Under the pieces are notes generated by a model. It was not told where the DNA came from. It saw only the letters and a program-made list of their open reading frames with translations, and searched no databases. The position numbers and the translations under genes were made by a program. A stretch of 64,000 bases of DNA, from the NCBI GenBank assembly GCA_000146045.2, contig BK006949.2, positions 1 through 64,000 on the forward strand, given 5' to 3'. Each line of letters opens with the position of its first letter. Positions within the stretch are counted from its first letter, which is position 1. Shown piece by piece: positions 39,112 through 56,274 of the stretch. The DNA is from TPA_inf: Saccharomyces (lineage: Eukaryota).

Positions 39112-40077
<966 letters not shown>

Positions 40078-41042
40078 GCTCTCTTATCAATTATGTAAGT
40101 GCTTGTATACTATTTACCTAAGATAAGAAAAAAAAAAGCAATTCAAAATTAAGCTTATCTTGACAGCGGGGCTGGTTTGTTTCTAGAAGACAAAAAGTGG
40201 GGAATCATTTTTACGTAACTCCCCCTGATAAGAAGGACTCACATCCTTATAGGTACGATAAAGAATGGTTGTATCTTTCCTATTTTTCGAAATCGTTATC
40301 TTATATAGTTGAACTACTACGGTTAAAAAGCTTAAGCCTCAGCCCTCTTAGTCAAACTTCTTTTTTGAAGGCACCAGGGTGCATAAAAGTGCGTCTATTG
40401 TTTCCCAGTGGAACTCTGTTGAGATAGCGATGTTTGTTTTTTTTTCACTTAACGGCAACCAATACCGATAGCGACGTCGCTGGCAGTGTAGAGTGGCCGT
40501 ACGGCGTCGCTAGATGGCACGGCACTGATTGCGGCGGGAGTCGCTAGGCGGTGATGCATTTCCGCACAGGGACCAGAGGAAGCTTCCCAGGCGGTGACAG
40601 TAAGTGAACTCATTATCATGTCTTCTCCAAAACATTCGTGACATCTAGTCATGCTCCTCGCAATTCACTCCGATTGGTATAGCTTTTTCGGTAGTTTTAG
40701 CTACTATGCTTAGGGGAAAGAGGAGAAACCGTACCGTCAGTCTCAGTCAAAAAATTTTGATATTCAATCTGATAGCAAAGTTGGAACTTGGGGTTATCTG
40801 GCCCTTTTTTGTTATCATATTCGTATACCCAACAACATATCGGTTCCACCGGTCCTTTTTATATATAAAAGACGATGTGTAGATGCACTCGAGTATTCTT
40901 GGAGAACGTAACTTGTATTGAGCTAGAGTGCTGGATAAAGTACCACATACTAACGTTCTTTTATAGAGCCAAACATAATTCTTTTGCACTTTCAATATAA
41001 GGTACAAGTGAAACACAGGAAAAAAAGAACTAACTCTAAGTA

Positions 41043-42869
41043 ATGAAGATGCCTCTAAAGAAGATGTTTACCAGCACGTCTCCTCGTAACTCTTCTTCTC
41101 TTGACAGTGATCATGACGCTTACTATTCGAAACAAAATCCTGACAATTTCCCTGTAAAGGAGCAAGAAATCTATAACATTGACCTGGAAGAAAACAATGT
41201 GTCCTCTCGTTCATCCACCTCTACATCACCTTCAGCAAGGGACGACTCTTTCGCAGTTCCAGATGGTAAAGACGAAAACACGCGGTTGAGGAAAGATTTA
41301 AAGGCAAGACATATTTCTATGATCGCCATTGGTGGTTCATTAGGTACAGGTCTGCTTATAGGTACAGGTACCGCCTTATTGACGGGTGGTCCGGTTGCGA
41401 TGTTAATTGCATATGCCTTTGTCGGCCTTTTAGTCTTTTACACCATGGCCTGTCTTGGTGAAATGGCTTCTTACATTCCATTGGATGGTTTTACAAGTTA
41501 TGCCTCACGTTACGTGGATCCTGCATTAGGTTTTGCTATTGGTTATACTTACCTTTTCAAATATTTCATCTTACCTCCCAACCAACTTACTGCTGCTGCT
41601 TTGGTCATTCAATATTGGATCAGCAGAGACCGTGTTAACCCTGGTGTGTGGATTACTATATTCTTGGTTGTTATTGTCGCTATCAATGTCGTCGGTGTAA
41701 AATTCTTTGGTGAATTTGAATTTTGGTTGTCCAGTTTCAAAGTCATGGTAATGTTGGGTCTAATCCTGTTACTATTTATTATTATGCTTGGTGGAGGTCC
41801 TAACCATGACCGCCTAGGGTTTAGATACTGGCGTGATCCTGGTGCGTTCAAAGAATATTCGACGGCTATCACTGGTGGTAAAGGTAAATTTGTTTCGTTC
41901 GTTGCTGTTTTCGTTTACAGTCTTTTCAGTTACACGGGTATTGAATTGACAGGTATCGTTTGTTCTGAAGCTGAGAATCCAAGAAAAAGTGTTCCAAAGG
42001 CAATTAAATTGACAGTTTACCGTATCATTGTTTTTTACCTATGCACCGTTTTCCTTTTGGGTATGTGCGTTGCATACAATGACCCTCGTTTACTTTCCAC
42101 AAAAGGTAAGAGTATGTCTGCTGCGGCATCTCCATTCGTGGTTGCCATTCAAAACTCAGGTATTGAAGTCTTACCTCATATCTTCAATGCTTGTGTCTTG
42201 GTTTTCGTTTTCAGTGCTTGTAACTCAGATTTGTACGTTTCTTCCAGAAATTTATATGCGTTGGCAATTGATGGTAAAGCGCCAAAGATCTTCGCTAAGA
42301 CAAGTAGATGGGGTGTTCCTTACAATGCTTTAATACTCTCCGTGCTGTTTTGTGGCTTGGCGTACATGAATGTGTCTTCAGGATCAGCAAAGATTTTCAA
42401 CTACTTTGTTAACGTTGTTTCTATGTTCGGAATCTTGAGTTGGATCACCATTTTAATTGTTTACATCTACTTCGATAAAGCCTGCCGTGCTCAAGGGATT
42501 GACAAATCAAAATTTGCTTATGTCGCTCCTGGCCAACGTTATGGTGCTTATTTTGCTTTATTCTTCTGCATTTTGATTGCTTTAATCAAAAACTTCACTG
42601 TTTTCCTAGGTCATAAATTTGATTATAAAACATTCATCACCGGGTATATTGGCCTGCCTGTCTATATCATTTCTTGGGCTGGTTACAAATTGATATACAA
42701 AACCAAAGTGATAAAGTCTACCGACGTGGATTTGTACACATTTAAGGAAATATACGATAGAGAAGAAGAAGAGGGAAGAATGAAGGACCAAGAAAAGGAA
42801 GAGCGTTTAAAAAGTAACGGTAAAAATATGGAGTGGTTCTATGAAAAATTTTTGGGTAATATCTTCTAG
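41043..42869 (+). CDS. DIP5: Dicarboxylic amino-acid permease (APC family), 608 aa
   Basis: 12-TM amino-acid permease; the sequence matches DIP5. Confidence 0.9.
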   Translation: MKMPLKKMFTSTSPRNSSSLDSDHDAYYSKQNPDNFPVKEQEIYNIDLEENNVSSRSSTSTSPSARDDSFAVPDGKDENTRLRKDLKARHISMIAIGGSLGTGLLIGTGTALLTGGPVAMLIAYAFVGLLVFYTMACLGEMASYIPLDGFTSYASRYVDPALGFAIGYTYLFKYFILPPNQLTAAALVIQYWISRDRVNPGVWITIFLVVIVAINVVGVKFFGEFEFWLSSFKVMVMLGLILLLFIIMLGGGPNHDRLGFRYWRDPGAFKEYSTAITGGKGKFVSFVAVFVYSLFSYTGIELTGIVCSEAENPRKSVPKAIKLTVYRIIVFYLCTVFLLGMCVAYNDPRLLSTKGKSMSAAASPFVVAIQNSGIEVLPHIFNACVLVFVFSACNSDLYVSSRNLYALAIDGKAPKIFAKTSRWGVPYNALILSVLFCGLAYMNVSSGSAKIFNYFVNVVSMFGILSWITILIVYIYFDKACRAQGIDKSKFAYVAPGQRYGAYFALFFCILIALIKNFTVFLGHKFDYKTFITGYIGLPVYIISWAGYKLIYKTKVIKSTDVDLYTFKEIYDREEEEGRMKDQEKEERLKSNGKNMEWFYEKFLGNIF

Positions 42870-56168: not shown

Positions 56169-56274
56169 TGAAACGGACAGGAATTGAACCTGCAACCCTT
56201 CGATTGCAATCTTATTCCGTGGAATTTCCAAGATTTAATTGGAGTCGAAAGCTCTACCATTGAGCCACCGCTTC
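56169..56274 (-). tRNA. tW(CCA): tRNA-Trp (anticodon CCA) with a 34-nt intron
   Basis: The reverse complement reads GAAGCGGTGGCTCAATGGTAGAGCTTTCGACTCCAA[intron]ATCGAAGGGTTGCAGGTTCAATTCCTGTCCGTTTCA, with the GGTTCAATTCC box B present. Confidence 0.9.

Follow-up and report, generated by a model that had tools for sequence, protein, structure and literature searches.

A conserved GC-rich island upstream of DIP5 in Saccharomyces cerevisiae is probably a distal activating region with CGGC-core sites

A short GC-rich island interrupts the AT-rich spacer between two tandem genes of S. cerevisiae, which raises the question of what this island is. A previous interpretation made from the letters of the DNA only (here the sequence-only reading) had proposed either a clustered, UASaa-like array of transcription factor sites or a small structured RNA. 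The question was addressed by computational analysis of the window, i.e. the whole 64-kb stretch of DNA, and of DIP5 loci from other yeasts. The best explanation, with a probability of roughly 0.65, is that the island serves DIP5 as a distal upstream activating region, i.e. as a compact group of putative transcription factor sites, located approximately 440 to 600 bp from the ATG and carrying CGGC-core Stp1/Stp2 sites together with one zinc-cluster-type site.

The genes on both sides were identified as follows. A 318-aa open reading frame (ORF) on the + strand (39121-40077) contains a complete rRNA adenine dimethylase domain (Pfam RrnaAD, 1.2e-84) and corresponds to DIM1, while the protein encoded by the 608-aa ORF at 41043-42869 (+ strand) matches Dip5p of S. 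cerevisiae with 100% identity. The neighbours had thus been named correctly, and the island is therefore located in the tandem DIM1-DIP5 spacer (40078-41042), past the DIM1 stop codon. Its distance to the DIP5 ATG, claimed to be 400-600 bp, was measured as 443-593 bp (-593 to -443). A TATA-like sequence, TATATATAAAAG, was noted in the DIP5 upstream region at 40860. The view of DIP5 as a permease gene under SPS control agrees with the literature, in which it is listed among the UASaa/Stp1-Stp2 targets (PMC7947893) and as an SPS/Stp target (PMC10055992).

The GC content of 40450-40599 is 0.62-0.63, versus approximately 0.30-0.45 in the surroundings. Following a scan of the window, coding sequence included, a GC content of at least 60% over 150 bp was found at 40443-40620 only, so that the description as a GC-rich island in an AT-rich spacer was borne out. 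The sister species S. mikatae, S. kudriavzevii and S. eubayanus each have their GC maximum (0.57-0.64) at the corresponding position. The oligo-T run at the 5′ edge had been read as T10 at 40439-40448; it is in fact one nucleotide shorter and starts further upstream:

40443-40620, no strand assigned: GC-rich island, the core of the conserved module upstream of DIP5, as delimited by the GC scan and by the GC maxima of the sister species.
40437-40445, + strand: run of nine T (T9) bordering the island on its 5′ side; the other species are T-rich there, the homopolymer itself is not conserved.

Syntenic loci of S. eubayanus, S. kudriavzevii and S. mikatae were found via the members of the 90%-identity cluster of Dip5; their gene order is ACM1-like/DIM1/DIP5/YPL264C-like/KEL3-like. 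The four DIM1-DIP5 spacers (S. cerevisiae, S. mikatae, S. kudriavzevii and S. eubayanus) were aligned. Identity to S. cerevisiae was 0.79, 0.75 and 0.67 in the island, versus 0.59, 0.53 and 0.49 in the upstream flank, and the fraction of four-way invariant columns was 0.47-0.50 and 0.28, respectively. This conservation is blockwise, short invariant blocks being separated by variable spacers. The conserved blocks are GCAACCA, CCGAYAGCG, CGGCGTCGC, ACGGCAC, GCGG-N9-TCCGCA, GACAGYAAGT and GAC.T.TAGTCATGCT.CTC. Metagenome contigs scanned with the invariant block yielded only three loci, all of them S. cerevisiae DIP5; the element is therefore single-copy, and a dispersed repeat or mobile element was ruled out. 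The island is under purifying selection in short blocks, single-copy and syntenic. Conservation in other Saccharomyces, proposed earlier as a check, was hence found for the island as a whole but not for the motif GTCGCTRG, which had been singled out as its repeated unit. The segments of the island, as derived from the alignment, are the following:

40454-40473, + strand: GGCAACCA (40454-40461) and CCGAYAGCG (40465-40473), also supported by motif matches per species.
40476-40483, + strand: GTCGCTGG, copy 1 of GTCGCTRG, overlapping the palindrome GCGACGTCGC.
40496-40510, + strand: palindrome GCCGTACGGC (40496-40505) running into CGGCGTCGC (40502-40510), with CGGC cores.
40518-40525, + strand: CACGGCAC, which fits the published Stp2 motif GYGCCGYR (YRCGGCRC on the opposite strand) at every position.
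40531-40547, + strand: GCGGCGGGA followed by GTCGCTAG as copy 3 of GTCGCTRG (40540-40547); least conserved part of the island, deleted in S. eubayanus.
40548-40566, + strand: GCGG-N9-TCCGCA, equivalent to CGG-N10-CCG (40549-40564, CGGTGATGCATTTCCG), an inverted repeat of the Zn2Cys6 dimer type.
40589-40605, + strand: second copy of AGGCGGTGA, followed by GACAGYAAGT (40596-40605).
40640-40663, + strand: GACATCTAGTCATGCTCCTCGCAA, strongly conserved, with TAGTCATGCT invariant.

Within GGCAACCA, GCAACCA is invariant and the leading G is missing in S. mikatae. A single position of GACAGYAAGT, the Y, varies between species, and the first copy of AGGCGGTGA is found at 40546-40554. Two other readings were discarded using the same alignment: the intron signals GTAAGT (40600) and TACTAAC (40948) were ruled out as not conserved, and so was a CCAAT/HAP reading of AACCAATA. 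A Gcn4 reading of TAGTCATG was rejected on published grounds, DIP5 being outside the Gcn4 target set and repressed by 3AT (PMC3239181).

Stp1/Stp2 sites contain a CGGC core (PMC10055992, PMC7947893); it is nearly constant among them, and a promoter can be made to respond to amino acids through SPS by a single site (PMC10055992). Five CGGC/GCCG cores are present in 40453-40535, and those of the segment formed by CGGCGTCGC and GCCGTACGGC are typical of such sites. CGGCGTCGC is invariant in the four Saccharomyces species, as is ACGGCAC; GCCGTACGGC is kept in S. mikatae, carries one change in S. kudriavzevii and is absent in S. eubayanus. The comparison with Stp1/Stp2 motifs suggested in the sequence-only reading gave a positive result for GYGCCGYR, used as Stp2 motif in bioRxiv 10.1101/2023.08.04.551922: CACGGCAC is the sole exact 8-mer match in the island and remains a match in all four Saccharomyces species, the S. 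kudriavzevii variant being TACGGCAC. In the 64-kb window this motif is not enriched overall (5 occurrences vs 2.98 expected), the island match being one of the five. Another sequence used as Stp motif, CGGCTC (PMC5486834), does not occur in the island.

The clustering of these cores was assessed statistically. Nowhere else in the window is RCGGC so densely clustered: five lie within 150 bp here, compared to two in the next densest place (Poisson P = 3.6e-6 per window, approximately 0.003 after correction), and RCGGC was also overrepresented relative to within-island shuffles (nominal P = 0.0135). Plain CGGC showed no enrichment over island composition in the shuffles (P = 0.12), so that the density of CGGC is in part due to the GC-richness itself.

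Seven further DIP5 loci were included, from N. castellii, N. dairenensis, K. africana, M. humilis, V. polyspora, Z. mrakii and the species carrying P0019. The DIP5 genes of N. castellii and N. dairenensis have GC islands of their own (0.58 and 0.59) with CGGC clusters several hundred bp upstream, and a CGGC cluster is also present in the Z. mrakii promoter; no comparable island or CGGC cluster was found upstream of DIP5 in K. africana, V. polyspora and the P0019 species. The DIP5 upstream regions of N. dairenensis and Z. mrakii also contain exact YRCGGCRC matches. In N. castellii, the counterpart of the GACATCTAGTCATGCTCCTCGCAA block reads CATGACTA...CTCTCGCA, in the opposite orientation. In a survey of 6-mers, CACGGC was found in six of eight divergent DIP5 promoters versus 1.65 expected, and the 30 most over-represented 6-mers of these promoters included CACGGC, GCGGCG, CGGCGT, TACGGC, TATATA and GATAAC; given the number of 6-mers tested, this signal is suggestive and not rigorous.

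The closest known counterparts are the UASaa of AGP1, BAP2 and BAP3, which are bound by Stp1/Stp2 with Dal81. Like these, the island is located a few hundred bp 5′ of the ATG of an amino-acid permease gene reported as SPS/Stp target, and it contains clustered CGGC cores and one exact, conserved GYGCCGYR match. It differs in geometry. In the AGP1 UASaa, two CGGC stand in inverted orientation with 6 bp between them (PMC7947893), an arrangement (CGGC-N6-GCCG) that was absent from all 11 DIP5 promoters examined, while the CGGC of the DIP5 island are mostly direct repeats with irregular spacing, supplemented by one GCCG-N2-CGGC palindrome. The proposal of a UASaa-like factor array is therefore retained in part: the conserved blocks, the RCGGC cluster and the Stp2 match speak for it, but GTCGCTRG is not the conserved unit.

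The inverted repeat GCGG-N9-TCCGCA has the properties of a different type of site. Neither half-site (GCGG, TCCGCA) shows any change among the Saccharomyces species, while each species has its own spacer; this combination is the pattern that would be expected for a Zn2Cys6 dimer site. The 10-bp spacing between CGG and CCG is the same in the four Saccharomyces species and in N. castellii, and the full pattern occurs once upstream of DIP5 at every Saccharomyces locus and in N. castellii, where the copy (GGCGGATTTCTATTTCCGCA) is found 342 bp upstream of DIP5 in the same orientation. The expected number of matches to the full pattern, which was derived from the four Saccharomyces sequences, is 0.01 per 64 kb. 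CGG-N10-CCG taken by itself shows no enrichment in the window (3 vs 2.5 expected). Dimer sites of the CGG-N10-CCG class are those of Put3, at PUT1 and PUT2, and of Tea1, as given by the spacing rule. The island resembles them in having inverted CGG triplets exactly 10 bp apart and in belonging to a nitrogen- and amino-acid-related promoter. Put3 and Tea1 are candidate factors for this repeat, by spacing only, and its spacer bears no obvious resemblance to the PUT UAS. The palindrome, which is kept upstream of DIP5 from Saccharomyces to Naumovozyma, may mark a direct input into DIP5 from a zinc-cluster regulator not currently linked to this gene, e.g. a Put3-like proline/nitrogen signal acting beside SPS/Stp; this is a tentative idea that would, on balance, more probably prove wrong than right.

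DIP5 is also an NCR-regulated permease gene (PMC4831890), which invites comparison with UAS-NTR, i.e. clusters of GATAA bound by Gln3/Gat1. GATAAG/CTTATC sites indeed flank the island, at 40122-40300 and 40793-40816. The GC core itself, in contrast to UAS-NTR, has no GATAA and contains only GATAG, at 40467; one TTATC is found at 40613, within 40449-40652. GATA control would therefore come from the neighbouring promoter segments.

Taking these elements together, the activating region may operate as follows. Amino acids perceived by the Ssy1-Ptr3-Ssy5 sensor would lead to proteolytic activation of Stp1/Stp2, which would move to the nucleus and induce permease genes including DIP5. The blocks with a CGGC core, namely CGGCGTCGC, CACGGCAC and the GCGGC copies, which vary more, would act as binding sites for these C2H2 zinc-finger factors, and GCGG-N9-TCCGCA as the site of a dimeric Zn2Cys6 zinc-cluster factor. 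The high GC content of the island would be due to the packing of several CG-rich sites. A literature search yielded no dissection of the DIP5 promoter and no binding or reporter results for the DIP5 region.

The alternative that survives best, although unlikely, is that the island regulates DIP5 in cis as a conserved module occupied mainly by factors other than Stp1/Stp2, bound at GCAACCA, CCGAYAGCG, GACAGYAAGT, TAGTCATGCT and the zinc-cluster palindrome, or that it serves mainly in GC-driven nucleosome positioning beside the T-rich tract. Several invariant blocks carry no CGGC, and the most significantly conserved element is GCGG-N9-TCCGCA; since GCAACCA, CCGAYAGCG, GACAGYAAGT and TAGTCATGCT match no assignable factor, other regulators may dominate. 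The composition-level frequency of plain CGGC and the missing AGP1-type geometry point in the same direction. Weighing against it are the conserved exact match to the Stp2 motif, the recurrence of CGGC-containing 6-mers in distant DIP5 promoters and the naming of DIP5 as an Stp1/2 target in both PMC7947893 and PMC10055992. The activating region with Stp1/Stp2 sites is thus preferred.

The sequence-only reading had emphasized a thrice-repeated GTCGCTRG, under which a factor would recognize this motif and the three copies would form a functional binding array. Three copies do occur within 72 bp of the + strand (40476, 40506 and 40540); their spacing is an irregular 30 and 34 bp and not about 40 bp as claimed. 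In the window, five copies were counted vs 1.18 expected, a number reached by 2 of 100 shuffles, and GTCGCT is enriched relative to shuffles of the island. However, any 6-mer present three times was obtained in 5.5% of dinucleotide shuffles of the island, so that with the look-elsewhere effect counted (P of about 0.055) the three-copy repeat is only borderline beyond chance. TCGCTRG of copy 1 alone is kept in three of the four species. Copy 2 (GTCGCTAG, 40506-40513) reads GTCGCCAA in all three other species, its GTCGC core being conserved and its TAG specific to S. cerevisiae, and copy 3 is replaced by TGCGGCT or TGCAGCC. The three sister species have no full GTCGCTRG at their DIP5 loci. The palindrome GCGACGTCGC, also pointed out earlier, is present in S. 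cerevisiae (40471-40480) but is not conserved in the four-species alignment. The threefold occurrence results from the position of GTCGC right next to one conserved CGGC site and from S. cerevisiae-specific substitutions. The repeat is mostly a coincidence confined to S. cerevisiae and not a functional repeat unit, and a binding array of GTCGCTRG, already largely refuted by this non-conservation, is very improbable.

The island had been given the coordinates 40449-40652. That these match a minus-strand ORF had been missed in the sequence-only reading:

40449-40652, − strand: 67-codon ATG ORF with coordinates identical to those of the feature described earlier; judged non-coding.

A small protein encoded from 40652 to 40449, possibly by a young S. 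cerevisiae-specific gene, would account for the exact coincidence of coordinates and for the intact ATG ORF, which is reported by automatic gene callers in many S. cerevisiae assemblies. The evidence on the other side makes this highly improbable. Homologues were confined to one S. cerevisiae-level cluster, comprising versions with alternative starts and an allele that has lost the stop and continues into the poly-T tract, and no Pfam domain was found in the 67-aa product. All three sister species (S. mikatae, S. kudriavzevii and S. eubayanus) have stops in this frame, at codons 10-16 and later. Alignment indels inside the ORF span measure 1, 1, 2, 8, 9 and 11 nt and are frameshifting, and the variable columns are distributed over the codon positions as 32/30/34, i.e. 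with no codon periodicity. The codon-usage score of −4.23, compared to −3.96 ± 0.05 for the genes of the window, is approximately 5 SD too low and falls below 93% of spurious ORFs of 50-90 aa. An open frame of 67 codons at island composition has a probability of approximately 8% per frame, and its occurrence here is explained by the infrequency of stop codons in GC-rich DNA. A protein-coding ORF was rejected by the homologue search, Pfam, the stops and indels of the sister species and codon usage. Like the proto-genes of yeast, i.e. species-specific intergenic ORFs, it has an ATG and an uninterrupted frame, is restricted to S. cerevisiae and overlaps conserved DNA outside genes; it differs from them in showing no sign of frame selection, in its poor codon usage and in a length expected by chance. 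The antisense ORF may nevertheless be a translated proto-gene born within a conserved enhancer, which is less likely than the zinc-cluster input described above.

That the island encodes a small structured non-coding RNA, as the sequence-only reading had offered for its GC-rich and, as found here, conserved DNA, is the least credible of the explanations: folding z-scores relative to shuffles were −0.5 on the + strand and −1.9 on the − strand, which folds slightly better than its shuffles, covariation in RNAalifold on the four-species alignment contributed a negligible −1.94 and −0.25 kcal/mol for both strands, with few compensatory pairs and several broken ones, and conservation follows short blocks and not paired arms. 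Using Rfam at gathering thresholds, the only match in the whole window was a tRNA at 56169-56274, and a permissive search of the spacer returned nothing inside the island at E values up to 10. Sub-threshold chance matches to Rfam were observed outside the GC core, e.g. SNORA29 at 40665-40756 with 23.5 bits compared to a gathering score of 50. A tRNA relic was ruled out, as ARAGORN detected no tRNA in the island. The island is devoid of a coding or RNA-structure signature.

The island is most likely an ordinary upstream regulatory region of yeast, for a gene whose regulators have already been described, and it has little significance past routine annotation; new here are the fine map and the conserved zinc-cluster-type palindrome only. 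It illustrates how GC-rich regulatory DNA leads to spurious ORF calls in automatic yeast annotation, as was the case for the antisense ORF. For the biology of DIP5, the probable amino-acid-responsive element would be narrowed to approximately 120 bp, with CGGCGTCGC, CACGGCAC and GCGG-N9-TCCGCA as the key bases.

Syntenic DIM1-DIP5 spacers were aligned for four Saccharomyces species (S. cerevisiae, S. mikatae, S. kudriavzevii and S. eubayanus). The highest conservation in the entire spacer was found at window 40787-40810, CTTGGGGTTAKCTGGCCCTTTTTT, where a single position (K) varied among the four. Two copies of GTTATC (GATAAC) occur around this block, at 40793-40798 and 40811-40816, and both are missing in S. 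eubayanus; the element under constraint is therefore not just a GATA site.

The GC-rich island upstream of DIP5 contains two perfect 10-bp palindromes. The first, GCCGTACGGC (40496-40505), is intact in S. mikatae, carries one change in S. kudriavzevii and is absent from S. eubayanus. The second, GGAAGCTTCC (40578-40587), is similar to a two-unit heat-shock element (GAAnnTTC) and showed no conservation among the four species.

Other motifs and the tRNA gene were located as follows.

Sequence features (window coordinates)
40122, 40154, 40227 and ~40296 (within 40122-40300): GATAAG/CTTATC motifs, immediately 3′ of the DIM1 stop codon
40600-40605: GTAAGT, in S. cerevisiae only
40948-40954: TACTAAC, then TTTTATAG, in S. 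cerevisiae only
56169-56274, minus strand: tRNA gene with an intron (56.4 bits to the Rfam tRNA family)

Reading GTAAGT and TACTAAC/TTTTATAG as intron signals was rejected; neither is kept in the sister species, so the matches were attributed to chance. Just 3′ of the island, a weak SNORA29-like match (40665-40756, plus strand; E = 0.18; 23.5 bits versus a gathering score of 50) was likewise judged fortuitous. The tRNA gene carries a 36-nt insertion past the anticodon stem.

In some S. cerevisiae assemblies, the non-coding 67-aa ORF on the minus strand of the island carries a stop-loss allele (window 40449-40451); the resulting database version, P0143, has 74 aa, with the poly-T tract read as lysines. 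A 96-aa ORF was called automatically in the DIM1-DIP5 spacer of Z. mrakii (locus L016, 1572-1862), likely another spurious call, in a relatively GC-rich promoter.

Among Dip5 relatives, P0129 (601 aa) groups with Dip5 in a cluster of at least 90% identity; its label, 'amino acid permease [Streptococcus uberis]', probably reflects a bacterial assembly contaminated by yeast. P0048, a Dip5-like protein with 66% identity to Dip5 annotated in S. cerevisiae strain AEL_HP2, may represent a second, introgressed or horizontally acquired copy.

The GATAAG/CTTATC motifs behind DIM1 are retained in three of the four Saccharomyces species. They are probably GATA-factor sites for nitrogen-catabolite repression, which would serve DIP5 from ~750-920 bp upstream.
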